NCBI GenBank assembly: GCA_902768335.1
Contig: CACXKR010000012.1
Location: forward strand, 4,870-68,869
Source: an uncultured Erysipelotrichaceae bacterium
Lineage (GTDB): Bacteria > Bacillota_I > Bacilli_A > RFN20 > CAG-826
Reading direction: 5' to 3'
DNA: 64,000 bases
Both the position numbers and the translations under genes were made by a program. The notes below the pieces were generated by a model. That model was not told the DNA's origin. It saw nothing but the letters and a program-made list of their open reading frames with translations, and did no database searches. This document shows, piece by piece, positions 18,440 to 64,000 of this stretch (position 1 is its first letter; each line of letters opens with the position of its first letter).

Positions 18440-18441
18440 TT

Positions 18442-20042: not shown

Positions 20043-20047
20043 AAATT

Positions 20048-20593: not shown

Positions 20594-20618
20594 AGAGGTT
20601 AATTCCTCTCTTTTCTTT
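20592..20618 (+). terminator. frr terminator
   Basis: AGAGAGGttaattCCTCTCT followed by a T-rich run. Confidence 0.75.
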
Positions 20619-20686
20619 TAGAAGATTAGCGAATATTTTATCTATACGCTTGTTTTAAGTGCGCCTACGCTTGTATAATATAGCGC

Positions 20687-49856: not shown

Positions 49857-51347
49857 ATGAAAAAGACGCCTTTCAACAATCAAAAATATTTAAAGATTCA
49901 AAGGGAATCTATTTTGAAGCGGATCAATAAATTCGGAGATAAGCTTTATCTAGAATTTGGCGGAAAACTTTTTGATGATTATCACGCTAGTAGAGTGCTC
50001 CCTGGTTTTAAAAGCGATTCTAAACTTCAAATGCTTTTAGGCATTAAAGATAAAGTTGAAATAGTCATCGTTGTTTCAGCAAACGATATTGCTTCTAACA
50101 AAGTTAGAAATGATACGCTTATCACCTATCAAGAAGAGGTTGAAAGACTCATCGATACTTATCGTGAAGTTGGTTTCTACGTCAGCAGTGTTGTCATCTC
50201 TTTTTATGAAAGCTTATTAACTGTAGATAATTTCATTAAGAAATTAGAACATAATAATTTAAAAGTTTATCGCCACTATAAAATTAATGGTTATCCTCAA
50301 AATATTTCCTTAATCGTTTCTGAAGATGGATTAGGAAAGAATGAGTACATTCAAACCACAAAACCTTTAGTGGTGGTGACTGCACCAGGCCCAGGAAGCG
50401 GAAAGATGGCAACTTGCTTGTCACAACTCTATCACGAAAATAAAAGAGGTATTCGCGCTGGATACGCTAAATACGAAACGTTCCCAGTCTGGAATCTTCC
50501 ACTTAATCATCCAGTTAATTTAGCTTACGAAGCAGCAACTGTTGATTTGAGCGATGTCAATATGATCGATCCTTATCATCTTGAAGCGTATAATCAAACC
50601 GCGGTTAATTATAACCGAGATATCGAAGTATTCCCTTTATTAAAAAATATCTTTGAAAAGATCTATGGTGAATCTCCATATAATTCACCAACCGATATGG
50701 GCGTTAATAAAGTTGGTTTTGCTATCGAAGATGAAGAAGGCGTTATCAAAGCCTGTAATGAAGAAATCATTCGTCGATATTATCAAACCCTTAAGAATGT
50801 TTATCTAGGCCGTTTTAATGATGATTCAATCAATAAAATTGAAATATTGCTCAACAAGGCAAATGTTTCAACTTCTTCTCGTCGCTGTGTTAACGAATGT
50901 TTAAAAGCCGCTAAAGAAAGCGAAGAACCAAGCGTTGCCATCGAATTAAGTAATGGCAAAATCATCACCGGTCATCGTAGTCCACTCTTCGGTGCTTGTG
51001 CAGCTGCCCTTTTAAACGCGATGAAATATCTAGCGAAAATCGATAAAAAGATGTTTTTATTAATGCCAGCGGTTCTTGAACCAATCAAAGAATTAAAAAC
51101 AAATTATCTTCATAGAAGCAATACTCGTTTAAGAGCAGAAGAAGTGCTCCTCGCATTATCGATTCAATCAAAAACGAACCCTCTTGCCGAACTCGCTATT
51201 AAACAACTTCCAAAATTAATCGGTTGCGAAGCCCATAGTAGCACCATTCTTTCACAAGTTGACTTAGGAACGCTTAATAGACTTGGCCTCCGCGTTACGG
51301 AAGAACCAATATCTTATAAACAAAAACTCTACACAAACAATCAATAG
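49857..51347 (+). CDS. DUF1846/UPF0371 family protein
   Basis: About 496 aa with N-terminus FNNQKYLKIQRESILKRI...HASRVLPGF, typical of the conserved Firmicutes UPF0371 family. Function unknown. Confidence 0.7.
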   Translation: MKKTPFNNQKYLKIQRESILKRINKFGDKLYLEFGGKLFDDYHASRVLPGFKSDSKLQMLLGIKDKVEIVIVVSANDIASNKVRNDTLITYQEEVERLIDTYREVGFYVSSVVISFYESLLTVDNFIKKLEHNNLKVYRHYKINGYPQNISLIVSEDGLGKNEYIQTTKPLVVVTAPGPGSGKMATCLSQLYHENKRGIRAGYAKYETFPVWNLPLNHPVNLAYEAATVDLSDVNMIDPYHLEAYNQTAVNYNRDIEVFPLLKNIFEKIYGESPYNSPTDMGVNKVGFAIEDEEGVIKACNEEIIRRYYQTLKNVYLGRFNDDSINKIEILLNKANVSTSSRRCVNECLKAAKESEEPSVAIELSNGKIITGHRSPLFGACAAALLNAMKYLAKIDKKMFLLMPAVLEPIKELKTNYLHRSNTRLRAEEVLLALSIQSKTNPLAELAIKQLPKLIGCEAHSSTILSQVDLGTLNRLGLRVTEEPISYKQKLYTNNQ

Positions 51348-51383
51348 ACATTTCTTTTATTCTTTAATAAAATTATTCACACT

Positions 51384-51468
51384 GCTCACGTGGTGAAACT
51401 GGTAGACGCAATGGACTCAAAATCCGTCGGAGAAATCCATGTCGGTTCGATTCCGACCGTGAGCACCA
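51384..51468 (+). tRNA. tRNA-Leu (anticodon CAA), CCA encoded
   Basis: Acceptor GCTCACG/CGTGAGC, anticodon arm ATGGA-CTCAAAA-TCCGT, long variable arm, T arm GTCGG-TTCGATT-CCGAC. Candidate promoter TAGACA-16-TAAAAT at 51346-51373. Confidence 0.9.
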
Positions 51469-51574
51469 TCTAATGAACTTAGTCCTTGATACAATTCGTA
51501 TTGAGGATTTTTTTGTATCAAAATTATTGATTGATGATACAATAAATGATACAATAAATTTGCGAGGTAAAAAT

Positions 51575-52909
51575 ATGGAAAATCGTGAATCAGAAACAGT
51601 TGAATTTAAAAAAAGTACATCAGAATTGAAACAAGGAATTGTATCTCTATCTTCCATGCTCAATAAGTCAGGTAGTGGAATTTTATATTTTGGAGTGTTG
51701 AACGATTCGACAGTAGTGGGTCAACAAATAGGAAAAGACACAACACACGATATTTCTGTTGAAATTAAAAACCATATTAAACCAGAAGTTATTCCAACAG
51801 TAGAATTAATAAATATTAACGATAAATACATTATAAAAGTATCAGTTGCTGGTATAAAAAAACCTTATTCTGCTTATGGAAGGTATTATATTAGAAGCGA
51901 TGATGAAGATTTGCTGATGAGTAATGAAATACTTGAGCAGTTTTTCAAAGACGATTCTATTGATTATTCAAAATGGGAAAACGCAATTACTGAATGGACA
52001 ATTGATGATATTGATGAAGAGAGATTGATTAGGTATTTTAACGAAGCTAACGAATGCGGAAGATTGAATTATGTTTATAAAGACAGCATTGATGCTTTAA
52101 CGAAATTAGGTCTTTTTAAGAACAATCATTTAAATAACGCAGGATACTACCTTTTTTCAAAAAATAAGCCACTCAAATTGAAATTAGCTGTTTTTAATAC
52201 TGATGAAAGATTATCTTTTTCTGACATCAAACTATTTGAAGGCAATATATTTGATTGCATCGAAGAAGGAATTCGTTACATTTCTGAAAGAATGAGGTGG
52301 AATGCTAAGATTGTTGGAAGCAAGAGAGTAGAATCTCCAGAGATACCACTAGAAGCAATTAGAGAAATTGTTGTTAATAGTTTCGCTCATATGAAGGTAA
52401 ATCCAGCTATTTTAAACGAAATCTATTTAACTCCTACCAAAATAAAAATCAGTAATCCAGGCAATATTGCTAAGAACATTGATCCAATGGATTTTGCAAT
52501 AGGAAAACAAAGTCCGATATTAAGGAACCCACTGATTGATATGACTTTATATAAAAATAATACTATTGACTCTTTTGCTACTGGCTTTGAAAGAACTTTC
52601 AAACTCTGCAAGGAAGCAGGGATAAAATGGGAATATGAAAATACTAAAACATCCTTCAGTTTTACTTTTATTAGATCAAATGATACAACAAATGATACAA
52701 CAAATGATACAATAAAAAATCGCCAAAGCGATATTATTAGTCTAATTAAAAAAGCTCCTTCAATAACAAGAAAAGAGATAGCGCAGACATTAAATATTTC
52801 AGAGCCAACGGTTGCAAGAGACTTAAAACTACTACAAGAAATTGGCATCATCAAAAGAAATGGTTCAAACAAAACAGGCTATTGGGAGATACTAGAAAAT
52901 GGCAAATAA
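51575..52909 (+). CDS. AlbA_2 (Schlafen-like) / HATPase_c_4 ATP-binding protein with C-terminal winged HTH
   Basis: The N-terminal ESETVEFKKS motif is diagnostic of the AlbA_2 divergent-AAA domain. A central RecG-C-terminal-like ATPase-like region follows. C-terminal HTH ITRKEIAQTLNISEPTVARDLKLL. SD gaggt precedes ATG 51575. Confidence 0.65.
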   Translation: MENRESETVEFKKSTSELKQGIVSLSSMLNKSGSGILYFGVLNDSTVVGQQIGKDTTHDISVEIKNHIKPEVIPTVELININDKYIIKVSVAGIKKPYSAYGRYYIRSDDEDLLMSNEILEQFFKDDSIDYSKWENAITEWTIDDIDEERLIRYFNEANECGRLNYVYKDSIDALTKLGLFKNNHLNNAGYYLFSKNKPLKLKLAVFNTDERLSFSDIKLFEGNIFDCIEEGIRYISERMRWNAKIVGSKRVESPEIPLEAIREIVVNSFAHMKVNPAILNEIYLTPTKIKISNPGNIAKNIDPMDFAIGKQSPILRNPLIDMTLYKNNTIDSFATGFERTFKLCKEAGIKWEYENTKTSFSFTFIRSNDTTNDTTNDTIKNRQSDIISLIKKAPSITRKEIAQTLNISEPTVARDLKLLQEIGIIKRNGSNKTGYWEILENGK

Positions 52910-53279
52910 AGAATTTAAAAACATTGAAGAATTTATTGAAGGATTCACTAGAAATGGTCCTACTCCTGAAAATTATAATTATGATGGTGTAATATGGGGA
53001 ATGGAATTCCAGTATAAAAATAGAATTTTTAGAGTTACAAGAGATACTATTGGACACGAAAAAGAAATCCGAATTAAATTCAATAAATCAGAAAAAGCAC
53101 ATATTCAACTATTCGAAATACCCGTTAACGAATATCCAAATGCCGATGGAAAAGATTTGAACATGTATTTAGGTATATTTGATGACGTAAACGACTTGCT
53201 TGATAATGGCAAGATAGATGGTGTTTCGCTTAGAAATATCATTGCAAGCGACCAAACTGAAATTCTTGCAATTGATTAA
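52899..53279 (+). CDS. Hypothetical 126-aa protein translationally coupled to the AlbA_2 gene
   Basis: Overlaps the upstream gene by 11 nt. No domain recognised. Confidence 0.5.
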   Translation: MANKEFKNIEEFIEGFTRNGPTPENYNYDGVIWGMEFQYKNRIFRVTRDTIGHEKEIRIKFNKSEKAHIQLFEIPVNEYPNADGKDLNMYLGIFDDVNDLLDNGKIDGVSLRNIIASDQTEILAID

Positions 53280-53489
53280 TAAAAACTTAAATAATTGATA
53301 AACGCTCTGATTAGCATTCGGGGCGTTTTATTATTTGTCTCAAAAGGTATAGTTTTTCACTTCTCAACTAACCAAGTTAAACGGCATCATTCTACCATTT
53401 TTATGCGCACATGTAATGATGAAACTGATTTTATTTTAAAATATAGTTGAAATTTGGAATAATATAAAATATCATAATTGTCGCCCTTT

Positions 53490-53565
53490 GCCGTCGTAGC
53501 TCAGTCGGTAGAGCAACTGTCTCGTAATCAGTAGGTCGGGAGTTCGATTCTCTTCGACGGCACCA
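53490..53565 (+). tRNA. tRNA-Thr (anticodon CGT), CCA encoded
   Basis: Acceptor GCCGTCG/CGACGGC, anticodon loop CTCGTAA (31-39 U-U mismatch), T loop TTCGATT. Candidate promoter TTGAAA-17-TATCAT at 53447-53475. Confidence 0.85.
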
Positions 53566-53584
53566 TTTCCCAGAAAAAAGCATT

Positions 53585-53660
53585 GGGTGTTTAGCTCAGC
53601 TGGGAGAGCATCTGTTTGACGTACAGAAGGTCACAGGTTCGAGCCCTGTAGCACCCACCA
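53585..53660 (+). tRNA. tRNA-Val (anticodon GAC), CCA encoded
   Basis: Acceptor GGGTGTT/AGCACCC, anticodon arm TCTGT-TTGACGT-ACAGA, T arm ACAGG-TTCGAGC-CCTGT. Confidence 0.9.
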
Positions 53661-53672
53661 TTTACTAAGAAT

Positions 53673-53700
53673 TCCAATGTCGTAAGATGTTGGATTTTTT
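53673..53700 (+). terminator. Repeated terminator module, copy 1 (after tRNA-Val)
   Basis: TCCAATGTCgtaaGATGTTGGA hairpin (two G-U pairs, so specific to the + strand) followed by TTTTTT. The same 22-mer recurs at 55362 and 58580. Confidence 0.75.
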
Positions 53701-53736
53701 ATTGCGTTTAGATTAGCACTCTTACACAGTAAGTGC

Positions 53737-53763
53737 TTGACTCTCTCTCTCTCTCTTTAGAAT
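53737..53763 (+). promoter_or_regulatory. Promoter cassette 1: TTGACT-(CT)n-TAGAAT, 15-nt spacer
   Basis: -35 TTGACT at 53737-53742 and -10 TAGAAT at 53758-53763. The spacer is CTCTCTCTCTCTCT plus T (15 nt). SD aggag and ATG 53803 lie downstream. Confidence 0.7.
53741..53756 (+). repeat. (CT)8 dinucleotide microsatellite inside the promoter spacer
   Basis: Direct count of 16 nt of perfect CT repeat, including the CT that ends TTGACT. Confidence 0.95.
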
Positions 53764-53802
53764 TAAAGATATCTCTAAATGCAACTCAATCAGGAGAATC
53801 TT

Positions 53803-55311
53803 ATGAAAACACGTAAATCAATTTTTGTCGTTTCTTGTTTTATGCCTTTTTTGCTTGGCGCATGTGGTGAAGCCGGAACTACGTCTTCAGGAATCGCAAG
53901 CAATCCATATGCTGATCGAGCCGTTGATGTTAAATTAATTGCCGATAGCGATTTAACCGCGGACAAAAATTTCGCCATCATCTATGGTGGTAAGATTGAA
54001 AAATTAGAAGCTGCGACTAGAAATTATTCAACTTTTAAAGGTTGGTATACCAAGAAAGCCGATATCGAATATCTTGTTCATGATGGAAGCAAGTTCACCG
54101 CCGGATTCGATACCATTTCTAATGATAAATATTCAATCAATCAGTCCGAATCCAAAGAATTATCGGTCGAAATATATGCTAAATATGACACCGAAAACAT
54201 TTCAGTCCGTTTGATTGCGAATTCTGATATTTCCGAAGATAAAACCATTGAAGTACCTTATTACTCTAATATGCCTACTCCTTCAGCAGTTGAAAAATCT
54301 CATAACGTTTATGTCGGTTGGCATACCGAATATAACGATGCTAAAGTGGTGGTCTATAAAAATAATTCATTCATCAAAGGAATGGAAAAATTATCCTTGG
54401 ATAATTATGAGATTAATCTAAATAAAGAAACTACCTTATATGCTGATTTTGAATTAGAGAAGATTGATGTTACTTGTCATCTTCCTAATGGAACCTCAAG
54501 CGTTGTTAAAGTTCCTTATCAATCTAAAGTTGAAAGATTTGCTTCTTCTTTAAGAGTGAATGGCTTTGCGGTCTCCAAATGGTCAACTGTTGAAAACGAT
54601 ACCTCATTAGAACACATTTTCACCGATGATGTTACAGCGCCTATAACCTTATATGCTGCTGAATACGATAAATATTATGTCGAATTCGTCGCCGATGAAG
54701 ATGTTCAATTCTTTTTTGCTTTACCAGGAAGCGAAATCAATGTTCCAGAAGTTCCACATATTTCAGGTTATCGTTCATCTGGCTACAAAGATAAAAACGG
54801 AAATCTCGTTTCTGGTAAATTAGTTGTTAATGCATGCGCTACATATGTAGCAACTTATGAAATCGCTACTTTTTCATGCACTAAATATGGTCAACTACAG
54901 AACACCGAGATTTATACTCCTAAAGCCTATAACAACACTTCCAATTATCGTCATTGGTCAGATACCATTAACTTTGGCACTACCTATTCGATAAAAGCTC
55001 TTAAATCTATTGGATATACTAAATTCAATTTAAGAATCCATTTATTCATCCATTCCATCAATGATGGATATCAAGACATCTTCGTTTATTCGCCAAATAG
55101 AGAACTTTACCATCAACAATATTCATATGGTGAAGATGCATATGGCGAGGTTAGTTTCAATTATTCTTTGAATTTTGCTGATTTAGATAACAATTCATTC
55201 TTTGAAATTAAATATGCCGCAAGTGGATGGTTTAATACTTTATTCTATTCAAATGGTAATCATTGGGTTTTATCCACGAATATAGAAGTGCAAATGACTC
55301 CTGCTAAATAA
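53803..55311 (+). CDS. Surface lipoprotein with Listeria-Bacteroides (Flg_new-type) repeats
   Basis: Lipobox FLLGAC. Repeated modules carrying the F/Y-x-GW-x-T signature (TFKGWYTKKAD, VYVGWHTEYND, AVSKWSTVEND). ATG 53803 has SD aggag. Confidence 0.75.
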   Translation: MKTRKSIFVVSCFMPFLLGACGEAGTTSSGIASNPYADRAVDVKLIADSDLTADKNFAIIYGGKIEKLEAATRNYSTFKGWYTKKADIEYLVHDGSKFTAGFDTISNDKYSINQSESKELSVEIYAKYDTENISVRLIANSDISEDKTIEVPYYSNMPTPSAVEKSHNVYVGWHTEYNDAKVVVYKNNSFIKGMEKLSLDNYEINLNKETTLYADFELEKIDVTCHLPNGTSSVVKVPYQSKVERFASSLRVNGFAVSKWSTVENDTSLEHIFTDDVTAPITLYAAEYDKYYVEFVADEDVQFFFALPGSEINVPEVPHISGYRSSGYKDKNGNLVSGKLVVNACATYVATYEIATFSCTKYGQLQNTEIYTPKAYNNTSNYRHWSDTINFGTTYSIKALKSIGYTKFNLRIHLFIHSINDGYQDIFVYSPNRELYHQQYSYGEDAYGEVSFNYSLNFADLDNNSFFEIKYAASGWFNTLFYSNGNHWVLSTNIEVQMTPAK

Positions 55312-55361
55312 TCTAATTTAAATAAGAGTGCTGGTCTTTGAACCAACCATTTGATAAGAAT

Positions 55362-55389
55362 TCCAATGTCGTAAGATGTTGGATTTTTT
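55362..55389 (+). terminator. Repeated terminator module, copy 2 (after the lipoprotein gene)
   Basis: Identical TCCAATGTCGTAAGATGTTGGA hairpin followed by TTTTTT. Confidence 0.75.
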
Positions 55390-55424
55390 ATTACTAAAAA
55401 TTGGCACTTTCACATAGTGAGTGC

Positions 55425-55453
55425 TTGACTCTCTCTCTCTCTCTCTTTAGAAT
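55425..55453 (+). promoter_or_regulatory. Promoter cassette 2: TTGACT-(CT)n-TAGAAT, 17-nt spacer
   Basis: -35 TTGACT at 55425-55430 and -10 TAGAAT at 55448-55453. The spacer is (CT)8 plus T (17 nt). ATG 55466 lies 12 nt after the -10, with no SD. Confidence 0.7.
55429..55446 (+). repeat. (CT)9 dinucleotide microsatellite inside the promoter spacer
   Basis: Direct count of 18 nt of perfect CT repeat, including the CT that ends TTGACT. Confidence 0.95.
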
Positions 55454-55465
55454 AAAAACAGTTAT

Positions 55466-56257
55466 ATGTTATTTACAAAAGGTATTGGAATTGCAAGTGT
55501 AGCAGTTAAAGCCGGAAAAGCCATCATTGCTGTAAAAAATGCTGGTGATAGCGGAAAGCTAGATTTTTTGGTTCCGAAATTTAGAGAATTAAGTAGCGAG
55601 ATTTTAAGTGATGAATATGATGACTCGCCAGAACTAATCACCGCTATTAAAAAAGCTAATAGTGCTATTAAAAAATCCAACAATAGTGAAGAGGATGCTG
55701 AAAAGGCTAAACAAGCGATTGAAGAAGCCTTATCTCTAATCGAAAAACAAAAAACCGAGTTAGATGAAAAAGATCAACAGCTTATAGAAGAAAGAAAGAA
55801 AAGAGAAGAAATCGAAGCAAACCTCAAAAAAATTGAAGAAGAACGTGTTCTTCAAGCTAAAAAGAAATCTCCAGAAAAAGTTAAAAAGGGAAGAATGATT
55901 GGGTTTGGAATCGCTTCGCTCATTTGCTTTTTTGTAGGAATTTATGCATTTATTCCTCATCAAACGACGGATTCGAGTGGAGCAACCGTGACGGAGACAA
56001 GTCCGATTGTTGGAATCACCTTATTAATCGGTGGTGGAATATTTCTAATATTATTCATTCTTTTTGCTTTAGAAAAAGTTGTTGTTAAATCTCTACAAGG
56101 GCATAAAGCTGTCGCTGTTAGTGGATTAACCAAGAATAGAGTTGTTGTAGATGGCGATTTAGTTTACGAGGGTAAAGAAGCTCTTGTTTATCTCGAACTT
56201 TCTGATGGCATAAAGTTCTCTGTGTCTTTTGAAGGCAAAGATGTAAAAATTCTTTAA
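55466..56257 (+). CDS. Membrane protein with coiled-coil region and two TM helices, unknown function
   Basis: 263 aa. Charged heptad-like segment (KQKTELDEKDQQLIEERKKREEIEANLKKIEEE), then two hydrophobic helices and a beta-rich C-terminus. Confidence 0.6.
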   Translation: MLFTKGIGIASVAVKAGKAIIAVKNAGDSGKLDFLVPKFRELSSEILSDEYDDSPELITAIKKANSAIKKSNNSEEDAEKAKQAIEEALSLIEKQKTELDEKDQQLIEERKKREEIEANLKKIEEERVLQAKKKSPEKVKKGRMIGFGIASLICFFVGIYAFIPHQTTDSSGATVTETSPIVGITLLIGGGIFLILFILFALEKVVVKSLQGHKAVAVSGLTKNRVVVDGDLVYEGKEALVYLELSDGIKFSVSFEGKDVKIL

Positions 56258-56359
56258 TAATAATTAATCAATTAATTAATATTTTGTTTTGTACAGTGTT
56301 CATATTTTTTTCGACAATTTTTTAAAAAACCTCAGTAATTAGTATGTGGAGGCATCTTT

Positions 56360-57373
56360 ATGAATGATAAAGAAAAACAAACCACTATTAATATTCTTGA
56401 GATGGTTAATAAACATCGAAATACCATTTATCTCAAAATTAATGAAGAACTGGTGTCGTTATATTACGAGATTGGCGAACTGCTTTCAAATATGATTAAT
56501 AAAGAAAAATGGGGGCACAAAAACATAGAAACCATTTCAAAACAAATCAAACAACATATACCTACAATTAAAGGATTTGAAAGGCCAAATCTTTATAGGA
56601 TGGTCCAGTTTTATGAAACATATAGAGACAATGTAATTGTCTCACCACTGGTGAGAAAAATTAGCTGGACCAATAATCTAATAATTCTTCATCACAAATC
56701 ATCAATTGAAGAAAAAGAGTTTTACATTAGACTTTGCATTAAAAATAATTATTCAAAAAGAGAGTTAGAAAGGCAAATTGCTTCTCATTATTATGAGCGA
56801 TACTTATTGTCTGATGGAAACGAACTTCCTAGTGAGAAAACGCTAATTGACGAAAACGATTATCCAAACACTAGAATTCTTGAAATAAATGATCTGTCTT
56901 TTTTAGATCTTCCATCTTGTTATGGCGAGAAAGACGTTAGAGACGGTTTGGTCAATAATATAAGAGATTTTATTTTAGAAATAGGCAAAGACTTTTCGTT
57001 TATTGGCAAGGAATATCGCATTACAGTTGGCAACACCGATTATTATATTGATCTTCTCTTCTTTAATCGTTACACAAATAGTCTAGTGGCATTCGAATTA
57101 AAGATTGATAAATTTAGGCCAGAATATCTTTCAAAGATGAATTTTTATTTAGAAGCTCTAGATAGGCAAGAAAGAAGAGGCAGAGAGAATCCCTCGATTG
57201 GGATAATTCTCTGCTCCGAGAAAGATCAAGCGGTTGTAGAATACGCAATGAGTAAAAATCCTTACCCAGTTTATATTTCAGAATATATCACCAAAACGCT
57301 TGATAAAAAGATGTTGGAAAACAAAATAATGCAAATAAGAAACCTTTTTGATAATGCCGACCACAAACTTTAA
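56360..57373 (+). CDS. DUF1016 (YhcG-type) PD-(D/E)XK nuclease family protein
   Basis: N-terminal helical domain (LYYEIGELL..WG, SWTNNLIIL, EKEFYIRLCIKNNYSKRELERQI). C-terminal nuclease core with DLLFFNRYTNSLVAFELK. SD ggagg. Confidence 0.75.
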   Translation: MNDKEKQTTINILEMVNKHRNTIYLKINEELVSLYYEIGELLSNMINKEKWGHKNIETISKQIKQHIPTIKGFERPNLYRMVQFYETYRDNVIVSPLVRKISWTNNLIILHHKSSIEEKEFYIRLCIKNNYSKRELERQIASHYYERYLLSDGNELPSEKTLIDENDYPNTRILEINDLSFLDLPSCYGEKDVRDGLVNNIRDFILEIGKDFSFIGKEYRITVGNTDYYIDLLFFNRYTNSLVAFELKIDKFRPEYLSKMNFYLEALDRQERRGRENPSIGIILCSEKDQAVVEYAMSKNPYPVYISEYITKTLDKKMLENKIMQIRNLFDNADHKL

Positions 57374-57409
57374 AATAGTCTTTTTAGAATTGTTTATAAA
57401 ATATAACGT

Positions 57410-57423
57410 GTATGATATCATAC
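57410..57423 (+). promoter_or_regulatory. Perfect 14-bp palindrome (putative operator) upstream of the second RHH-MNT gene
   Basis: GTATGATATCATAC is its own reverse complement. It shares the core TATG-N-TATCATA with the dyad at 48934-48951 and overlaps the -10-like TATCAT (57416-57421). Confidence 0.55.
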
Positions 57424-57439
57424 TCTTGAGGCAATAGTT

Positions 57440-57895
57440 ATGAATGCTAAACGTGCTAAATATATAAATAACTTCAACAAAGATAATTACAAGATGTATC
57501 AATTTCGAATCAAAAGGAGCGATACTAAATTAATCAATAAATTAGATAGTGTCTCAAATAGGAATAACTATTTGACCAATCTAATTTTGGAAGATATTGA
57601 GCCAAACGTTTTAACAATCAAAGAGATTAAAGAAAAAATAAGACCAGTTATAGAGAAGCATGGTATCAAAGATGTTTACTTATTCGGCAGTTACGCTCGT
57701 GGTGAAGCAAATAGAAATAGTGATGTTGACATTTATTGTGATGGTGGTGATGTTAAAACACTTTGGGAACACTCCTCGCTAGAAGATGAACTTGAAGAAG
57801 CTCTAGGAAAAGAAGTTGATGTAGTGACAATCGGATCTCAAATGCATGACTTTTTTAGACAGCAATTAGAAAAAGACATGATTAAAATATGTTAA
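57440..57895 (+). CDS. RHH-MNT nucleotidyltransferase antitoxin, second paralog
   Basis: Colinear with the 48972-49427 product (YKMYQFRIKRSDTKLINKL, LFGSYARGEANRNSDVDIY). Confidence 0.8.
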   Translation: MNAKRAKYINNFNKDNYKMYQFRIKRSDTKLINKLDSVSNRNNYLTNLILEDIEPNVLTIKEIKEKIRPVIEKHGIKDVYLFGSYARGEANRNSDVDIYCDGGDVKTLWEHSSLEDELEEALGKEVDVVTIGSQMHDFFRQQLEKDMIKIC

Positions 57896-57966
57896 GTACA
57901 AAAGAAAAAGGAATAATGTCATACATTATCAAGCATTGTAATAGAGTTGTTAATATATCACTATAA
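57889..57966 (+). pseudogene. Truncated hepT remnant (25 codons)
   Basis: Same ATGTTAA overlap with the MNT stop as the intact pair. MLSTKEKGIMSYIIKHCNRV aligns with HepT MLTIKEQGLLRNIIKHCEKI. A stop at 57964-57966 falls well before the Rx4HxY motif. Confidence 0.7.
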
Positions 57967-57993
57967 TGATAGAATTATATCAGAGGAAATAAT

Positions 57994-58260
57994 ATGACTA
58001 TCTTACCATCGACAAGTTTAAGAAACCAATATAACGAAATATCAGAAAAATGTAAGAAAAGTGGAGAACCAATTTACCTTACTAAAAATGGTGAAGGTGA
58101 TTTGGTGGTAATGTCTGTAGAAGCCTATGAAAAACAACTAGCTCTTTTAAAATTAAAAGAAAGACTTCTTGATATTGAATTAGAGCAACGAAGTGGAGCG
58201 AAAAGTTATAGTCTTGATGAACTAGATTCCGCTTTAAGAAAAATTGTAAATAATGGATAA
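57994..58260 (+). CDS. Phd/YefM family antitoxin
   Basis: 88 aa. The N-terminal pattern LRNQYNEISEKCKKSGEPIYLTKNGEGDLVVMSVEAYE is typical of Phd/YefM. Confidence 0.8.
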   Translation: MTILPSTSLRNQYNEISEKCKKSGEPIYLTKNGEGDLVVMSVEAYEKQLALLKLKERLLDIELEQRSGAKSYSLDELDSALRKIVNNG

Positions 58261-58564
58261 ATACAAAATCGTTATAACCCAAAGAGCATTTTCGGACCTT
58301 TTAGAGTGCGTGCTTTTTGTTAATGCAGTTTCTAATGAGGCCGCTAAAAAGCTTCATTTAGAAATAATGGAATCGATCCGTTCTTTAGAAACATTCCCAG
58401 AAGCACATCCATTTATCGATGGGCTAACTATCGCTAATATCAAGATTAGGAGAATGTTAGTGCATAATGGTAGATACTTCATTCTTTATAAGATCGAAAA
58501 AGATATCGTAACAATCTATGATATTTTAGATTCAAGAAAGGATAATTCTATTCTTAAACTTTAG
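58253..58564 (+). CDS. RelE/ParE family toxin
   Basis: 103 aa, 8-nt overlap with the antitoxin gene. The YFILYKIEKDIVTIYDILDSR C-terminus is typical of the RelE/ParE fold. Confidence 0.75.
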   Translation: MDKYKIVITQRAFSDLLECVLFVNAVSNEAAKKLHLEIMESIRSLETFPEAHPFIDGLTIANIKIRRMLVHNGRYFILYKIEKDIVTIYDILDSRKDNSILKL

Positions 58565-58579
58565 TTTAAATGCAAAAAA

Positions 58580-58606
58580 TCCAATGTCGTAAGATGTTGG
58601 ATTTTT
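58580..58606 (+). terminator. Repeated terminator module, copy 3 (after relE/parE)
   Basis: TCCAATGTCGTAAGATGTTGGA followed by TTTTT. Confidence 0.75.
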
Positions 58607-58670
58607 ATTTGCCTATTTTTAGTTGAAACCTGGAACGAGTTATAATGTAAATAACAAAGGAGTCTTATTT

Positions 58671-59366
58671 ATGACATTAACACAACTTTTGCCATTCTCT
58701 TTCCAGTGGTGGGGCGACGGTTCTGAAAGTGCCAAACAAGCAGTCGACGATATCATCGTTAGAAGCACTGCTAATTTCAATTGGACTTTCATCTTTATTC
58801 TTGCGGTTGTCTTCTATGTTTATTGGTCAGAGATTCATAAGAAAAACTATGAAGCCGTTTTCGCAGGACTTGCGTTATACGCGGTTCACTGGCTATACGA
58901 AATCGCTAACGCTATCATCGGTAAAGCAAGCGGCTATCCGCTATGGGCGGTCTCAAATGCATCAAGTACATTCATTCTTCTTGAAGGTGTATCTTGGGAA
59001 TTATCGATGATGTTTGCTCTTGCTGGTATCATCTCTTATAAGATGATGGGAGACAAGAATAAGCGTTATTTCACCTTTGGTGGTAAATATAAAGGTGTCT
59101 CCACTAGAGTAGTCACAACTATCTCTATGGCGTTACTCTTTGCGTTATTTGAAGCTTTCTTAGCAGGAACATCCAACGGCTCATTCATCTGGGTTTATCC
59201 ATGGTGGGGCGTTCTTCCTGTCTTTATTACCACTTATATTCCATTCTTTATCGCTAGTAATTACATCAACATGGCAAAGCCAAAACTAAGAACTATTCTC
59301 CTTGCATCATCTTGGGGCTTAGTCGCCATTCTCTTGGTCGTGCTCATTCCTTGTGGAATCATTTAA
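58671..59366 (+). CDS. Polytopic membrane protein, unknown function
   Basis: SD aaggag before ATG 58671. Six or seven TM segments. Confidence 0.6.
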   Translation: MTLTQLLPFSFQWWGDGSESAKQAVDDIIVRSTANFNWTFIFILAVVFYVYWSEIHKKNYEAVFAGLALYAVHWLYEIANAIIGKASGYPLWAVSNASSTFILLEGVSWELSMMFALAGIISYKMMGDKNKRYFTFGGKYKGVSTRVVTTISMALLFALFEAFLAGTSNGSFIWVYPWWGVLPVFITTYIPFFIASNYINMAKPKLRTILLASSWGLVAILLVVLIPCGII

Positions 59367-59382
59367 ATAAAATTTTCTATAA

Positions 59383-59417
59383 GAAAAGGGATTCGTCTAT
59401 TGAACTGAATCCCTTTT
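59383..59417. terminator. Bidirectional terminator between convergent membrane protein genes
   Basis: aaaaGGGATTC ... GAATCCCttttt. Confidence 0.75.
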
Positions 59418-59428
59418 TGTTTTGTTAA

Positions 59429-60316
59429 CTATTCTTTTTCTTCCTTCTTCTTATTTACAAGTAGAATAGCGATTCCTACACCAGTATACGCTAAGAAGTG
59501 AATGATGATCTCAACTGGAAGTGAAGCCATCCTATCGATTGGATAGATTTGAGAGATCGAAGAAATATAAGAAGTATCGTTTAAGCCACTAATGACCGTA
59601 TAGACAAAGAAGCCGACATTTAAAGCTAAAGCGATGAGAGCCATCACGAAGGTTTTCTTTTTATTAAGAATACCTAAGTTCATTAATACAAGTATTACAC
59701 CTAAGAATACCGGTAGTAATAGATATAAGAAGGTTGGGAATGTTTGATAGAGATTTCTAACGTAAACATAACCTGGTAAGGCTAAGAATAAACCTAATCT
59801 ACTTAAAGCCATTCCAATAAAGAGAGTCCAACCAATTGTTTTAAGAACATAGACGAAGTTAACTTTAATTCTTTCTTTGTCCTCTTCCATTTTCTTCACA
59901 AGGAAGAATCTTGCATAGCAAGATGCACATAAAACAAGGATATTAAGAATCATAAAGAGGATTAAATATCCTGGGAATGGGTTAGGACCGACAAAGGTTT
60001 TGTAAGTAATAACTCCACCTAAGATAGATCCGACCACACCAAGAAGCGCAAATGCCATTGCGATAACTAAATATGTGCTAGCGATTCTCTTCTTACATTC
60101 TGGATGTCTATAGGTTCTAATAAAATAGAAGATTCCTAAGATAAACATCACGGCGATGCTAACGGCAGGAAGAGATACAAAGATGGTCATATTGGAGAAT
60201 GAGACGCCTTTGTTAAATAAGTCATCCATGAGCATATTGGATGCAAGTAAGGTAAACATCGCTCCAGCAAGGCTAAGAACGATTAACGAAATGAGGGTAA
60301 TATATTTTTTATTCAT
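59429..60316 (-). CDS. Polytopic membrane protein, unknown function (last gene of the GT2 operon)
   Basis: About 8 TM segments. Its start lies 1 nt after the upstream gene's stop. Confidence 0.6.
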   Translation of the reverse strand: MNKKYITLISLIVLSLAGAMFTLLASNMLMDDLFNKGVSFSNMTIFVSLPAVSIAVMFILGIFYFIRTYRHPECKKRIASTYLVIAMAFALLGVVGSILGGVITYKTFVGPNPFPGYLILFMILNILVLCASCYARFFLVKKMEEDKERIKVNFVYVLKTIGWTLFIGMALSRLGLFLALPGYVYVRNLYQTFPTFLYLLLPVFLGVILVLMNLGILNKKKTFVMALIALALNVGFFVYTVISGLNDTSYISSISQIYPIDRMASLPVEIIIHFLAYTGVGIAILLVNKKKEEKE

Positions 60317-60317
60317 C

Positions 60318-61334
60318 TTACATTACCTCCTTGTATTCGTGATAATAGTCTTCATAAGAAAGTGAATGGTCTTCATTAAGAGTAATAACTCTTCCGCCTA
60401 ATAAGCTATCATCCGCGTAGACTCTATCGGTGGCTTTGATACCATAACCGAAGTGAATACCTTCATAGTTAATAATATAATTATTAATGTGGTCATGACC
60501 AAAGTACATGCCATGTGTTGAACCGAGTTCTTTGATCACTTTATAGAATCCGGAATTGTAATCTGGATTACATGGTTCTTCATTTTCTTGCGCCTTGGAG
60601 CCAGTTGGGTTAAGAATCAAAGATTCATCCTTTTTTGCGGCCGCCCAAGCATCCCTAACTTCTGGAAGCGGGATGTGATAGAACATAAGAGATGGCACTG
60701 TAACGTCGCCGTTTTCTTTCTTAGTTTCTTTCACTAAAGCAGAATACCAATCGATTTGATCTTGGTGAAAATAGTCGTAGCCGAAGTAACCATTATAGTT
60801 GTAGCGATTGCTATCCATAACGATTAATTGTTCAAAGACTTTGTCGTCTTTCATCAGATTGATCGCGAAGTTAGCGTTACCTTGAACTTTGTCATCTTGA
60901 AGGTCTTTGAAGACGCAGTAGGAACTGCCGTCTTTAATTCTCTTCTCATTTAATTTGTTCAAGTAACCGGTTATCCAATCGATTGAATACCAACATTGCT
61001 CGTCGTGGTTACCAAAGGTAATTGTCCATGGAACTTTGTGAGAATCTAGCCAATTAAAATAATTGATTGCTGTTCCTTTAGATGCAAAGGTGAAGACGTC
61101 ACCAGTGACAATGATGAAATTTGGATGAGCTTCTTTAATCGTCAAATCCATGAAATCGTAATGCAATTTGGTGTTATCTTTATCACCGATATGCGTGTCA
61201 GTGAGCTGTAAGATACGATATTGTTTTGAATAATCTAATTGCAATACGTAGTCTTTCGGTTCATAAGCTTTGTTACCACAAGAAGTGAGTAATACCGCTA
61301 ATAAACCAGAAAAAAATACAAATTTATTTTTCAT
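60318..61334 (-). CDS. Calcineurin-like metallophosphoesterase lipoprotein
   Basis: Lipobox LLTSCG. Metallophosphoesterase motifs LTDTHIGD, VTGDVF, GNHDE, GHDH. Confidence 0.8.
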   Translation of the reverse strand: MKNKFVFFSGLLAVLLTSCGNKAYEPKDYVLQLDYSKQYRILQLTDTHIGDKDNTKLHYDFMDLTIKEAHPNFIIVTGDVFTFASKGTAINYFNWLDSHKVPWTITFGNHDEQCWYSIDWITGYLNKLNEKRIKDGSSYCVFKDLQDDKVQGNANFAINLMKDDKVFEQLIVMDSNRYNYNGYFGYDYFHQDQIDWYSALVKETKKENGDVTVPSLMFYHIPLPEVRDAWAAAKKDESLILNPTGSKAQENEEPCNPDYNSGFYKVIKELGSTHGMYFGHDHINNYIINYEGIHFGYGIKATDRVYADDSLLGGRVITLNEDHSLSYEDYYHEYKEVM

Positions 61335-61398
61335 ATCTATTTGTGTTTTCCTTTCTTTATTATTTTAAATTTAAAAACGCATTTAGTGAAATTTTCTC

Positions 61399-62703
61399 TT
61401 ATTTATTCACGCCATGGGGAATTTTTCGCCATTTAACATCACGAACTAACATCGCTGATAAATCAAGTGGGATTTGTGTAACGACAAATAATGGGAAAAA
61501 TACGAAACCTAAAATAAGAGGCAATTTTGGTTGATTTTTAAATTTGTCTCTCGAGCCAATGAGCACCATAAGGGCCATAAGATAAATGCTAAGAAAAGTA
61601 AATACTATTGTTCTAGCCATTAAAAATAAAGCGCCGACATTTAAATTTAAAAATAAATTTTCAAACCAATTTAAATCATAATTCCAAGATAAGAATGTTT
61701 CTTGTAACGAAATCCCAAATAGTGGTGATAAGCAAAGTAAAGCGTATTGAAGAACAAAGGAAAAGAACATCGTAAGAGGAAGGAAGGAGTGGAAGACTAG
61801 ATTGACAAATAATGACATCTTGTTTTTCTTTTCTTTGCTAAACAAAGCTTTTAGTAATTTAGGGAAAAATGTTTTACAACCAAGATATTGACCTTTCGCC
61901 CATCTAAGACGTTGAAACCACATTGTCTTCACATCGTGTGGTTGCTCATCATAAAAGATTGCTTCATCGCAATAGTGAATCGTATTACCTGCTAAAATCG
62001 TATTGCCGCTATATTCAATATCCTCGGTAATTCCTAAATAATTCCAGCCATTTTCGACCATTCTTGTCGGTAAAAGAAAACCGCATCCAGTAATACGGCT
62101 AGAGACGTTAAAGTTTTCTCGACCAGCATAACCTAAGGTGCAAGATGTCGCAAAATAATAACAATACATCGCAGGCATAGCACCATCTTTAACATTTAAG
62201 GTATGACGGAAACTAGTGATCGTTTCCTTTTTGCCTAGATAAACAAAAGCATCGTTTAATTTGTCAAAGAATTTTTTATCGACAATGTTGTCAGCGTTTA
62301 AGACAACAAAGCCATCATATTTTTTAATATCTATATGTTTAAAAGCATAGTGATATGCACTTCCAAGAGTTCTAGCATTTGGATTATTGTATTCGATAAC
62401 ATGAGCGCCTAAGGACCTCGCGACTTCAGCAGTCTTATCCGAACAATTGTGCGCAATGATAATAATATCTAATTTGTCTTGAGGATAATCTGCAGATCTA
62501 ATTGAACCAATCAAACGTGGGATAACATTTTCTTCGTCTTTTGCAGAGATTAAAACACCATAACGACATTTTTCATCGCTATGAGGGAATCTTTTTTTGT
62601 GTATAACCCCCACGATTGCAAAGAAAGCAAATTGGAAGGTATATAGACTTAGTAAGGTACCAAAGATGAGGAAGATGAGATTTACAATAGCTACGTAATT
62701 CAT
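61399..62703 (-). CDS. Membrane-integrated family 2 glycosyltransferase (processive, IcaA/cellulose-synthase-like)
   Basis: N-terminal TM segment and a GT-A fold with a DxD-like NADN motif. Q(R)LRWAKG motif as in processive GT2 enzymes. C-terminal TM bundle. Start is either ATG 62703 or ATG 62763. Confidence 0.8.
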   Translation of the reverse strand: MNYVAIVNLIFLIFGTLLSLYTFQFAFFAIVGVIHKKRFPHSDEKCRYGVLISAKDEENVIPRLIGSIRSADYPQDKLDIIIIAHNCSDKTAEVARSLGAHVIEYNNPNARTLGSAYHYAFKHIDIKKYDGFVVLNADNIVDKKFFDKLNDAFVYLGKKETITSFRHTLNVKDGAMPAMYCYYFATSCTLGYAGRENFNVSSRITGCGFLLPTRMVENGWNYLGITEDIEYSGNTILAGNTIHYCDEAIFYDEQPHDVKTMWFQRLRWAKGQYLGCKTFFPKLLKALFSKEKKNKMSLFVNLVFHSFLPLTMFFSFVLQYALLCLSPLFGISLQETFLSWNYDLNWFENLFLNLNVGALFLMARTIVFTFLSIYLMALMVLIGSRDKFKNQPKLPLILGFVFFPLFVVTQIPLDLSAMLVRDVKWRKIPHGVNK

Positions 62704-62756
62704 TTTCGTATGTAATATTCTATAACAATTTTTTAATTGTGTTAAAATTACTTGGT

Positions 62757-63686
62757 ATGTCAAAGCAAAACACCAAAATCACTAACGCTAGAACAATCAA
62801 TAAGATGCGTTGCATAGTCGGTTTAGTTCTCTGCTCAATTGTCATCGTTTTAACTGTCGTTTCAATAACGTTTAATTTTATTAATTTTTATAATGAAGAT
62901 TCTCCCGAAGCAGGCGTACGCACCCTAAGAATGTATACAACTATATCAAACATCATCGCCACCCTTGGAGCGTCGATTTGCATCCCGTTTCAAATTGATG
63001 GTTTAAGAAAGAATAGGTATATACTTCCTAAGTGGATTGTCGAAGTCTTGTATGTCGGTGCGGTCGGAGTATTCTTAACTTTTGTTACAGCCCTTAGCTT
63101 TATTTCAATCAATTCAGGTTTTGTATATGCAATGTTTACTAATTCAAACATCTTCATGCATACGCTAAATCCAATTTTCATCACCATCTTATTCACGGTC
63201 GCTATTTCGGATAGCCACTTAAAATTCAAAGACTCTTTTATTACCATCGTTCCAACGATTGTCTATGCGATGCTATATTTTGTTTTAGTGTTTATCACTA
63301 ATACATGGAGAGATCATTATTCTTTAGAAAATGTTTTACCTTGGCCAGTTGAATTTATTTTAATCATCGCTTTTGCTTTTGGTTTATCTCAACTTCTCCG
63401 TCTTTTGCATAATCTCACCAATAAGTTTGTTAACAAAAATATTGAAAGATATTACAAAGAATCGCCGGATTATGAATTCGAAAAAATTACTTTCGCCATC
63501 CAAAAATTAGCGTTAGAAGAAGCGAAATATTATCATGTAGATGATGAAATCTATATTCCAGTGGATATCATTCAACTTTTATCGCAAAGATATAAAACCG
63601 CTACACTCCCACTTGATATCCAATACGATATTTATTTAGAGGCTTATCTAGAAAACATTCATAAGAAAGAAAAAATGCACACGTAG
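62757..63686 (+). CDS. Polytopic membrane protein with soluble C-terminal domain, unknown function
   Basis: Divergent from the GT2 operon. Six TM segments. ATG 62757 lies 9 nt after TAAAAT (62742-62747). The stop codon lies inside the tRNA-Gly gene. Confidence 0.6.
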   Translation: MSKQNTKITNARTINKMRCIVGLVLCSIVIVLTVVSITFNFINFYNEDSPEAGVRTLRMYTTISNIIATLGASICIPFQIDGLRKNRYILPKWIVEVLYVGAVGVFLTFVTALSFISINSGFVYAMFTNSNIFMHTLNPIFITILFTVAISDSHLKFKDSFITIVPTIVYAMLYFVLVFITNTWRDHYSLENVLPWPVEFILIIAFAFGLSQLLRLLHNLTNKFVNKNIERYYKESPDYEFEKITFAIQKLALEEAKYYHVDDEIYIPVDIIQLLSQRYKTATLPLDIQYDIYLEAYLENIHKKEKMHT

Positions 63687-63750
63687 TTCAGTGGTAGAAC
63701 ACTAGCTTCCCAAGCTGGCTATGCGGGTTCGATTCCCGTCGTGTGCTCCA
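63677..63750 (+). tRNA. tRNA-Gly (anticodon CCC), CCA encoded
   Basis: Acceptor GCACACG/CGTGTGC, anticodon arm CTAGC-TTCCCAA-GCTGG, T arm GCGGG-TTCGATT-CCCGT. Confidence 0.9.
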
Positions 63751-63761
63751 TAAGTTTAATT

Positions 63762-63783
63762 CCCTATTGAAAAATAGGGTTTT
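63762..63783 (+). terminator. tRNA-Gly terminator
   Basis: CCCTATTgaaaAATAGGG followed by TTTT. Confidence 0.75.
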
Positions 63784-63799
63784 ATTTTGTATTATAAAG

Positions 63800-63828
63800 T
63801 TGTCAAAAGGGTAACCTCTTGATAGATA
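63800..63828 (+). promoter_or_regulatory. Promoter reading into the 44-nt tandem repeats
   Basis: TTGTCA (63800-63805), 17-nt spacer, extended -10 TGaTAGATA (63820-63828). Confidence 0.5.
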
Positions 63829-63911
63829 TGGTCTGAGGGTAAGACCTTAAAAAGAAATCCCAAACGAAGATATGGTCTGAGGGTAAGACCTTAAAAAGAA
63901 ATCCCAAATGA
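63824..63911 (+). ncRNA. 2 x 44-nt perfect-phase tandem repeat; candidate type III antitoxin RNA (ToxI/CptI-like)
   Basis: Units 63824-63867 and 63868-63911 differ at one base (C63865 versus T63909). Each contains the hairpin GGTCtgagggtaaGACC and an A-rich tail. Confidence 0.45.
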
Positions 63912-63915
63912 AATT

Positions 63916-63936
63916 GCTTGGATTTTCCAAGCTTTT
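63916..63936 (+). terminator. Rho-independent terminator between the repeat array and the downstream ORF
   Basis: GCTTGGattttCCAAGC followed by TTTT. Confidence 0.75.
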
Positions 63937-63945
63937 ATTATCTCT

Positions 63946-64000
63946 ATGGCAAAACTTATTGAATTGAGAAAATTATCAAAAGAGTTTTATAAGGCTTATC
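63946..64000 (+). CDS. 5' end of an ORF (MAKLIELRKLSKEFYKAY...); candidate type III toxin (ToxN/AbiQ/CptN-like endoribonuclease). Truncated by the window.
   Basis: An ATG 10 nt after the terminator opens a frame that runs to the window end. The call rests on locus architecture, not on the 18 visible residues. Confidence 0.35.
   Translation, partial: MAKLIELRKLSKEFYKAY

Follow-up and report, generated by a model that had tools for sequence, protein, structure and literature searches.

A tenpIN-Family Type III Toxin-Antitoxin Cassette, Very Probably Complete, Directly after a tRNA-Gly Gene in an Uncultured Gut or Rumen Bacilli-Type Bacterium

Introduction

At the end of a 64,000-nucleotide stretch of DNA from an uncultured bacterium, which is the whole stretch analysed here and is called the window hereafter, a tRNA-Gly gene and its terminator are followed by two head-to-tail repeats, a second terminator, and the first codons of an open reading frame that runs off the end. 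The arrangement raises the question of whether this represents a toxin-antitoxin (TA) system of type III, i.e., one whose antitoxin is an RNA, and, if so, to which of the three type III families it belongs and what it may do for its host. A sequence-only reading of the window had listed these elements, and all of them are present at, or within 1-2 nt of, the positions that it gave. The type III architecture that it proposed is borne out as well, with a complete open reading frame of 155 aa that belongs to the TenpN family and has a predicted ToxN/AbiQ-like fold.

Of the three type III TA families, tenpIN has been studied least. Established in 2012 from 25 loci, it had grown to 722 toxins by 2025, more than half of them in Firmicutes (PMC3401426, PMC12283969). 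As set out below, the locus is very probably a complete tenpIN-family cassette of ∼0.7 kb, located directly after tRNA-Gly in the genome of an uncultured low-GC gut/rumen Bacilli-type bacterium. It adds a member to a known family and is not a new system. The coordinates of its features are collected in Table 1.

Table 1. Features of the cassette and of the adjacent tRNA gene, in window coordinates
Feature	Position	Strand	Evidence or remark
tRNA-Gly (anticodon CCC), outside the TA system	63677..63750	+	ARAGORN; Rfam tRNA 69.2 bits
tRNA-Gly terminator: hairpin CCCTATT-GAAA-AATAGGG 63762-63779 and T-run 63780-63788	63762..63788	+	terminator scan
Predicted sigma-70-type promoter: -35 TTGAAA 63767-63772, 17-nt spacer, -10 TATTAT 63790-63795	63767..63795	+	consensus scan
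5' leader hairpin GUCAA-A-AGG-GUAA-CCU-C-UUGAU, GNRA-type loop	63802..63823	+	minimum-energy and centroid folds
TenpI antitoxin unit 1, 44 nt	63824..63867	+	TRF, stem 1 fold, covariation
Unit 1, stem 1	GGUCU 63830-63834 with AGACC 63842-63846	+	fold and covariation
Unit 1, pseudoknot stem 2	GGG 63837-63839 with CCC 63859-63861	+	covariation
Unit 1, A-rich tract	63849-63857	+	
Linker motif GAAGAU between pseudoknot cores	63866..63871	+	putative TenpN processing site
TenpI antitoxin unit 2, 44 nt	63868..63911	+	TRF, covariation
Unit 2, stem 1 and stem 2	63874-63878 with 63886-63890; 63881-63883 with 63903-63905	+	
Rho-independent terminator, antitoxin/toxin: GCTTGGA-TTT-TCCAAGC 63916-63932, TTTT 63933-63936	63916..63936	+	terminator scan
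tenpN 5' end, first 18 codons	63946..64000	+	ATG at 63946; encodes MAKLIELRKLSKEFYKAY, then runs off the window

Antitoxin Repeats and Their Pseudoknot

TRF reports a tandem repeat with a period of 44, 2.0 copies, a match of 97%, and a score of 171 at 63824-63912, in agreement with the two units that the sequence-only reading had placed at 63824-63911 with one mismatch, now identified as C63865 versus T63909 at a linker position. A near-perfect tandem repeat of 88 nt cannot arise by chance. Each unit carries a hairpin and an A-rich tract, AAAAAGAAAT, both of which had been noticed earlier; the stem, first given as the four pairs of GGTC/GACC, has 5 bp (GGTCT/AGACC).

Dozens of homologous toxin genes are preceded by the same layout of repeats followed by a terminator. 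A scan of a single genome for each species turned up 56 loci with relatives of the toxin, most of them from gut and rumen Bacillota MAGs and the closest ones labelled Erysipelotrichaceae or Bacilli. Repeats were searched for in the 400 nt upstream of these genes, either by TRF or by local alignment, and most relatives have about two units of 42-47 nt, with units of 51-53 nt in the relatives from Fibrobacter and gammaproteobacteria.

An alignment of 82 distinct units, with stem 1 in columns 10-14/23-27 and stem 2 in columns 17-19/43-45, served to evaluate the pseudoknot that the sequence-only reading had suggested predicting for the 44-nt unit. When an H-type pseudoknot is imposed on this alignment, 97.6% of the cells are paired, and compensatory double changes occur in seven of the eight pairs, including all three pairs of stem 2. 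This second stem is 100% paired and swaps GC for AU at each of its three pairs, with variants such as GGA/UCC, GAG/CUC, and AGG/CCU. These values were reached in 0 of 500 shuffled controls, and every slid register collapses. Across the 82 units, the strand between stem 1 and stem 2, AAAGAAAU, is almost invariant, and in the window all eight pairs are intact in both units. The covariation supports a fold in which each unit would form an H-type pseudoknot composed of stem 1, the A-rich strand, and stem 2. A pseudoknot of stem 1, A-stretch, and stem 2 was predicted for TenpI by Nadig et al. 2025 (PMC12283969), and in the clade of the window it is now backed by covariation. An Rfam search of positions 63000-64000, with E up to 10, returned the tRNA only, and the repeats match no ToxI-like or other family in it.

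Toxin Gene and Protein

The full tenpN gene comprises 155 codons and a stop, and it ends 413 nt past the window, as read from overlapping metagenome contigs that were found by an exact-protein look-up of the neighbouring gene. One of these contigs (L002) is 100% identical to window positions 50318-64000, and the other (L001) differs at eight positions, all within 58062-58140. Both give the same 155-aa protein, and it is identical across independent assemblies.

Once the ORF had been extended in this way and run against profiles, a check that the sequence-only reading had put forward, it matched NCBIfam NF047358 (NF047358.1, an equivalog named "type III toxin-antitoxin system TenpIN family toxin") with an E-value of 1.4e-45 and 155 bits against a cutoff of 90 bits, the match covering profile positions 1-139 of 141. 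TenpIN is the sole NCBIfam family matched by the ORF at E up to 10, and all 29 aligned homologs likewise match this family and no other. In total, 202 homologs of the toxin were collected, most of them metagenome proteins, and the closest named one in public records carries the label "hypothetical protein".

Among the 29 aligned homologs, residues R32, P33, Y34, P49, R51, H56, G74, D76, and K79 are invariant or at least 90% conserved. With the exception of P33, these are the residues of the published TenpN signature, namely R36, Y38, P53, R55, H60, G75, D77, and K80 in the numbering of the E. faecium / K. pneumoniae proteins (PMC12283969), with the same spacing.

The AF2 model of the toxin (pLDDT 88.6, pTM 0.84) has the traits expected of a tenpIN toxin, whose core of ∼150 residues is folded like ToxN and includes a long helix, here at residues 97-127. 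The three best Foldseek matches in the PDB are ToxN 2xd0, AbiQ 4glk, and B. thuringiensis ToxN 4ato, with TM-scores of 0.55-0.59 and a probability of 1.0, at E-values that are marginal (4e-3 to 2e-2); MazF/Kid toxins rank behind ToxN and AbiQ. With the Pfam family ToxN_toxin (PF13958), which the sequence-only reading had also named, the toxin scores 15 bits (E 0.029), below the threshold of 25 bits. The kinship of the modelled toxin to toxIN/AbiQ is at the level of fold or superfamily only.

A link to a locus known from the literature is provided by tblastn, which aligned the toxin to the Y. pseudotuberculosis IP 31758 plasmid p153kb with 34.7% identity over 92% coverage (E 2e-9). This plasmid is listed with one tenpIN locus in Table 1 of Blower 2012 (PMC3401426), and the link holds at the level of the replicon. 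Because of the NCBIfam model, the residue signature, the fold matches, and the tblastn link, the toxin is identified from its sequence as TenpN, and not as CptN or as ToxN in the narrow sense. As for other resources, PADLOC had nothing that the toxin matched, PDB sequence and profile searches gave nothing meaningful and no solved structure of a TenpIN family member, tblastn against phage genomes gave no match, and IMG/VR returned distant TenpN relatives only, at 30-41% identity.

Promoter, Leader, and Terminators

The hairpin of the tRNA-Gly terminator (7 bp, -10.4 kcal/mol, z -3.46) forms the conserved left edge of the cassette in loci L006-L012 and in the metagenome loci that carry a cassette. 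Its loop contains the -35 box of the predicted promoter, TTGAAA-17-TATTAT, which has 10 of 12 consensus bases in a region where promoter-like sites are no more numerous than in shuffled sequences. The distance between promoter and leader is conserved: in all 29 leader-bearing loci, a -10-like hexamer (TAnnnT in nearly all) lies exactly 6 nt before the G of GTCAAAAGG, and this spacing is kept even where the upstream DNA is unrelated or a different RNA follows the leader. Transcription is predicted to start at about G63802.

The leader itself retains its stem in the relatives, with GUAA, GAAA, GCAA, GGAA, or ACAA loops and with compensating stem changes in L013 and L015. In L122, L124, and L006 the hairpin precedes another RNA, for which Rfam gave nothing significant.

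The sequence-only reading had placed the promoter elsewhere, as TTGTCA-17-TGaTAGATA. This string does exist, at 63800-63828, and is a weak match that the consensus scan does not report; as a -10 box, TAGATA has three of six consensus bases and misses the final T. It was rejected as the main promoter, TTGTCA-17-TAGATA, on three grounds, namely that TTG varies among the relatives (GTGTCA, GTATCA, ATGTCA), that the -10 is poor, and that the segment coincides with the conserved leader hairpin. "TTGTCA" is more likely to be part of the 5' hairpin of the transcript than a -35 box, and the conserved promoter is predicted to be the one given above.

The terminator between antitoxin and toxin, described as strong from the letters alone, was confirmed by the scan at 63916-63936 as a 7-bp stem with four GC pairs (-9.5 kcal/mol, z -3.49). 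The last unit and the ATG are separated by a GC-rich hairpin with a T-run in at least 44 of 48 related loci, where 44 is the count in a strict gapless test; in the remaining four the hairpin is bulged or the T-run is absorbed in the stem. The count was made by a direct hairpin test, since RNAfold is misleading here because the A-rich linker pairs with the T-run.

No Shine-Dalgarno sequence precedes the ATG of the toxin, and the same is true of about half of the genes in the window, for which reason its absence was dropped as a special feature.

Linker and Candidate Processing Site

The two pseudoknot cores are separated by a linker of 12 nt that carries the conserved GAAGAU. Upstream of the core, the consensus base at each position of this motif is retained in 47-74 of the 82 units, and downstream in 56-74. 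In the window, the inter-unit copy of the motif (63866-63871) is intact; ahead of unit 1 its 3' half, AGAUAUGG, is retained, and past unit 2 its 5' half, CCCAAAUGAA, as expected if cleavage inside the linker gives two equivalent 44-nt units. In the clostridial relatives, GAAGAU stands on both sides of every unit, so that it also precedes the first one and follows the last. These observations make the GAAGAU linker the likely TenpN processing site.

ToxN cuts at AA^AU, and the sequence-only reading had drawn attention to an AAAU in the A-rich tail of each unit. This tetranucleotide was rejected as a ToxN-type cut site, for its place is within the pseudoknot core, flanked by stem 1 and stem 2; the better candidate for cleavage is the conserved linker, which reads GAAGAU. 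As of Blower 2012, the processing register was not known for either cptIN or tenpIN (PMC3401426), and the type III TA literature searched contained no report on the processing site of TenpN or on the stoichiometry of its complex.

Family Assignment and Proposed Mechanism

Families of type III systems are defined by toxin sequence. What the results above establish for this locus is the family and predicted fold of its toxin, its architecture, and, by covariation, the structure of its RNA. With 44 nt, 2.0 copies, and 155 aa, the locus lies within the published tenpIN ranges of 39-57 nt, 1.9-3.0 copies, and 70-259 aa (Blower 2012, Table 2 for the repeats; PMC3401426). Apart from the promoter, which is predicted, every sequence-level trait of tenpIN that was tested is present, and it is the toxin that sets the locus apart from cptIN and toxIN.

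Compared with P. luminescens TT01 and the rest of the tenpIN family, the locus has the same toxin family with its R-x-Y, P-x-R-x4-H, and G-x-D-x2-K residues, the same order of a promoter, predicted in the window, about two tandem repeats, terminator, and toxin, and a unit length and copy number in range. The window toxin is ∼35% identical to the proteobacterial plasmid members found by tblastn, and its units are near-identical to each other, whereas the tenpI arrays of E. coli and Klebsiella have many repeats that differ by up to 35% (PMC12283969). The extras in the closest relatives of the window, relative to published tenpIN loci, are the 5' leader with its GNRA loop, the missing Shine-Dalgarno sequence, and the tRNA-adjacent position. 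The near-identical units and these extras are minor differences.

With ToxIN (Pectobacterium atrosepticum, B. thuringiensis, E. coli) and AbiQ/antiQ (Lactococcus lactis), which provide the best structural matches 2xd0, 4ato, and 4glk, the locus shares the logic of the operon. In those systems the toxin is the processing enzyme of its own repeat RNA, the product of which inhibits it, and they act by abortive infection. Their units are of 34-36 nt in 2.8-5.5 copies, as opposed to two units of 44 nt in the window, and the window toxin stays below the Pfam threshold noted earlier.

The activity proposed in the following is modelled on the toxIN, cptIN, and P. luminescens TenpIN literature (PMC3401426, PMC12283969), from which we infer by homology the transcription start, the processing, the toxicity, its neutralisation, and the abortive infection. 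A constitutive promoter, TTGAAA-17-TATTAT, would drive transcription from ∼63802, and the RNA would consist of the small GNRA-loop hairpin followed by the two 44-nt TenpI units, each of which would fold into an H-type pseudoknot with GGUCU/AGACC as stem 1, GGG/CCC as stem 2, and the A-rich strand between them. The terminator at 63916-63936 would halt most transcripts, so that antitoxin RNA would exceed toxin mRNA, and the transcripts that read through would yield the 155-aa TenpN endoribonuclease. TenpN would then cleave the precursor in the single-stranded GAAGAU linkers and would be held by the unit-length pseudoknots in an inactive, closed RNA-protein complex. If the supply of antitoxin failed or the RNA was degraded, as upon phage infection or loss of the locus, TenpN would be freed and could cut cellular and phage RNA, leading to growth arrest or abortive infection. 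Within the family, it is for P. luminescens TenpIN only that toxicity of TenpN, its neutralisation by the repeats, and abortion of coliphage infection by the locus have been shown (PMC3401426).

For the host genome, the locus represents a probable abortive-infection or addiction module beside tRNA-Gly, and for the family it is a well-documented tenpIN locus gained from uncultured gut or rumen Bacilli. It leaves the known working of type III TA systems unchanged. Its clade provides a compact antitoxin of 44 nt with clear covariation behind its pseudoknot, the GAAGAU linker as a specific candidate for the processing site, and a predicted transcript start with a 5' hairpin, all of which could guide structural or biochemical study.

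Genomic Context and Alternative Readings

The cassette begins 5 nt past the 3' end of tRNA-Gly. In its own genome it stands by itself, between tRNA-Gly and an IS110 element, after which come ordinary metabolic genes. At the nucleotide level, the window and its closest relatives share homology (73-90%) across the cassette alone, from about -150/-219 to +353/+582 with respect to the ATG.

This confinement of the homology to 0.7 kb, together with the occurrence of the cassette after many different tRNA genes, favours the view that it mainly serves addiction or stabilisation, by which it and its tRNA-proximal site would be retained, rather than phage defence. We consider such a main role possible and somewhat unlikely. 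It is also favoured by the array of several such modules in L006, by the IS110 element 390 bp downstream, by the failure of cptIN loci from Firmicutes to protect against phage in the sole test done, and by the caution of Blower et al. that the natural role may be another than abortive infection (both PMC3401426). However, the sole tenpIN locus tested does abort phage infection (PMC3401426), and the cassette has neither a recombinase nor another mobility gene, nor was a target duplication found; moreover, the stabilisation and phage-defence roles are compatible with each other.

It is very unlikely that this tenpIN cassette is a decaying or silent relic in which toxin or antitoxin is no longer active. 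Decayed copies are found in metagenomes, two of them with a single unit and a toxin truncated after 10 codons (L106, L119), one with a single unit and no toxin (L110), and one with two units and no toxin (L116), and because of them not every copy of the cassette can be functional; the missing Shine-Dalgarno sequence ahead of the ATG points the same way. Against this, the ORF of the present copy is of full length with all family-invariant residues, its protein is identical in independent assemblies, its units differ at one linker position only and keep all eight pairs in both, and its terminator, leader, and predicted promoter fit the family consensus. By these features the cassette is apparently intact.

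The sequence-only reading had regarded cptIN as the closest family. The CptIN loci of Eubacterium rectale and Coprococcus catus are arranged in the same order, carry about two units of 40-48 nt, lie on the chromosomes of gut Firmicutes, and share the H-type pseudoknot, in which the A-rich strand of CptIN makes A-minor contacts, as recounted in PMC12283969. The length of 44 nt lies within the ranges of both families, cptIN (40-48 nt, 1.9-3.4 copies; PMC3401426) and tenpIN (39-57 nt), and so unit length does not discriminate between them. That the locus is a cptIN system is extremely improbable, and this reading is already largely refuted: its copy number of 2.0, its chromosomal position, and its Firmicute-type host, as for all cptIN loci in Blower 2012 (PMC3401426), would suit it, but the toxin matches the TenpIN model only, well above the cutoff, with no CptN profile match and no other NCBIfam family at E up to 10 (a database that may hold no CptN model), bears the TenpN residue signature, matches a replicon that carries a founding tenpIN locus, and has no CptN or CptIN entry among the 50 PDB fold matches listed, where ToxN and AbiQ rank 1-3.

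Possible Mobility of the Cassette

The tenpIN cassette starts a few nucleotides after a tRNA gene in the window, in six genome loci, and in ten metagenome loci, the carriers being related gut and rumen Bacilli. At least nine tRNAs are involved, namely Gly-CCC, Arg-CCT, Arg-CCG, Arg-TCT, Met-CAT, Pro-TGG, Leu-CAG, Thr-CGT, and Glu-TTC.

An integrase-type insertion at the tRNA was considered and rejected, since no second copy of the tRNA 3' end turned up downstream in the loci retrieved. No empty site was found either, as each contig that has the neighbouring gene also has the cassette or stops short of it, and a megablast of 63600-64000 gave no phage match and, for plasmids, matches to tRNA fragments only.

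The recurrent junctions suggest, as a low-probability lead, that the cassette may move as a unit to tRNA-proximal sites. A broader version, which we hold to be improbable, is that the tenpIN unit could be one type of cassette in an undescribed cassette-array system of gut and rumen Bacilli that targets the 3' flanks of tRNA genes, the cassette itself having no recombinase of its own. The evidence for this cassette-array reading consists of the recurrent junctions.

As to the ends of the cassette, the left one is a module of terminator hairpin and promoter, TTAATTCCCTATTGAAAAATAGGG..., and at the right one TAAC-N3-GTTA palindromes are followed by AGACA. In the MAG contig L006 this left-end module occurs three times, in what appears to be a head-to-tail stack of small cassettes.

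Association with tRNA genes

Between the window and its relatives (the genome loci L007-L012 and the metagenome loci L104-L121), homology is confined to the 0.7-kb tenpIN cassette, i.e., to window positions 63751-64000 and the sequence beyond them. In the window, six genome loci, and ten metagenome loci, the 3' end of a tRNA gene is followed after a few nucleotides by the start of the cassette, and the identity of the tRNA differs between loci, with at least nine found in this position: Gly-CCC, Arg-CCT, Arg-CCG, Arg-TCT, Met-CAT, Pro-TGG, Leu-CAG, Thr-CGT, and Glu-TTC. In the window and the related loci, neither a duplication of the tRNA end downstream of the cassette nor a recombinase within it was found.

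Decayed copies and viral relatives

Rumen metagenomes also hold decayed copies of the cassette. Two of them (L106 and L119) combine one antitoxin unit with a toxin that is cut short after 10 codons, and a third, L110, has one unit without a toxin. The fourth, L116, retains two units and the terminator without a toxin gene, and is an orphan antitoxin. Distant TenpN relatives, with 30-41% identity, occur on 42 viral contigs of IMG/VR (L062-L103), in agreement with a 2025 report of tenpN in viruses, and none of these 42 contigs encodes a protein close to the TenpN clade of the window.

Shared modules and the leader hairpin

The module composed of the terminator hairpin and the promoter is present in three copies on a single Erysipelotrichaceae MAG contig, L006, each preceded by TAAC-N3-GTTA palindromes plus AGACA, in a pattern resembling small cassettes stacked head-to-tail. 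After the third copy come two short repeats of another kind (CCnTTCGCTTAGT), a T-run, and an ORF of 18 codons, and this arrangement could represent a decayed, different type III-like cassette. Moreover, the 5' leader hairpin of the tenpIN cassette, GTCAAAAGGGAAACCTCTTGATAG, also opens an unrelated conserved RNA of ~190 nt (GG...GGTCCCACCAAACCGCGAGAGACAGTCTCGC...), with the hairpin placed 6 nt past a -10 box and a terminator at the end of the RNA. No Rfam family matches this RNA.

Features near the cassette and on related contigs
Feature	Sequence	Position	Strand	Remark
Type II TA pair: Phd/YefM antitoxin (88 aa) and ParE-like toxin (103 aa)	window	57994-58564
SLFN/AlbA_2-HATPase-HTH protein, 478 aa	window	within about 50300-57900
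DUF1016/YhcG nuclease-like protein, 337 aa	window	within about 50300-57900
NTP_transf_2/Pol-beta nucleotidyltransferase, 151 aa	window	within about 50300-57900
IS110-family (DEDD) transposase gene	L001	5323-6534	-	about 390 bp past the toxin stop, outside the window
~190-nt RNA with GTCAAAAGGGAAACCTCTTGATAG leader	L006	1250-1440
~190-nt RNA with GTCAAAAGGGAAACCTCTTGATAG leader	L122 (metagenome locus)	1812-2000
~190-nt RNA with GTCAAAAGGGAAACCTCTTGATAG leader	L124 (metagenome locus)	from 297 downward	-
Terminator-hairpin/promoter modules	L006	1140-1280; 4730-4880; 5460-5760

Genomic neighbourhood

The window end may be a defence-rich stretch, because several of the upstream genes, as seen in positions 13440-21017 of the metagenome contig L001, encode proteins with domains typical of defence or mobile elements, namely the proteins of 478, 337, and 151 aa in the table. 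The distance from the tenpIN locus to the type II TA pair upstream of it is 5.4 kb, and all 8 differences between the window and L001 in 13.7 kb fall within 58062-58140, inside the antitoxin gene of this pair. The second metagenome contig reaching past the window end, L002, stops at the IS110-family element, which is to be expected if the IS is present in several copies.

Assembly and labelling

Two contigs from k=87 assemblies, L003 and L004, are identical to the window and break off at its positions 63841 and 63899, both within the 88-nt tandem repeat, and it is probably this repeat that breaks k=87 assemblies. Finally, a Bacilli-type cassette with 82% nucleotide identity is found in L009 (CAVGNR010000001.1), a record entitled "Escherichia coli isolate ... 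cleanbin"; the fetched stretch has a GC content of 38.5%, and the Escherichia coli label appears to stem from an error in binning or naming.
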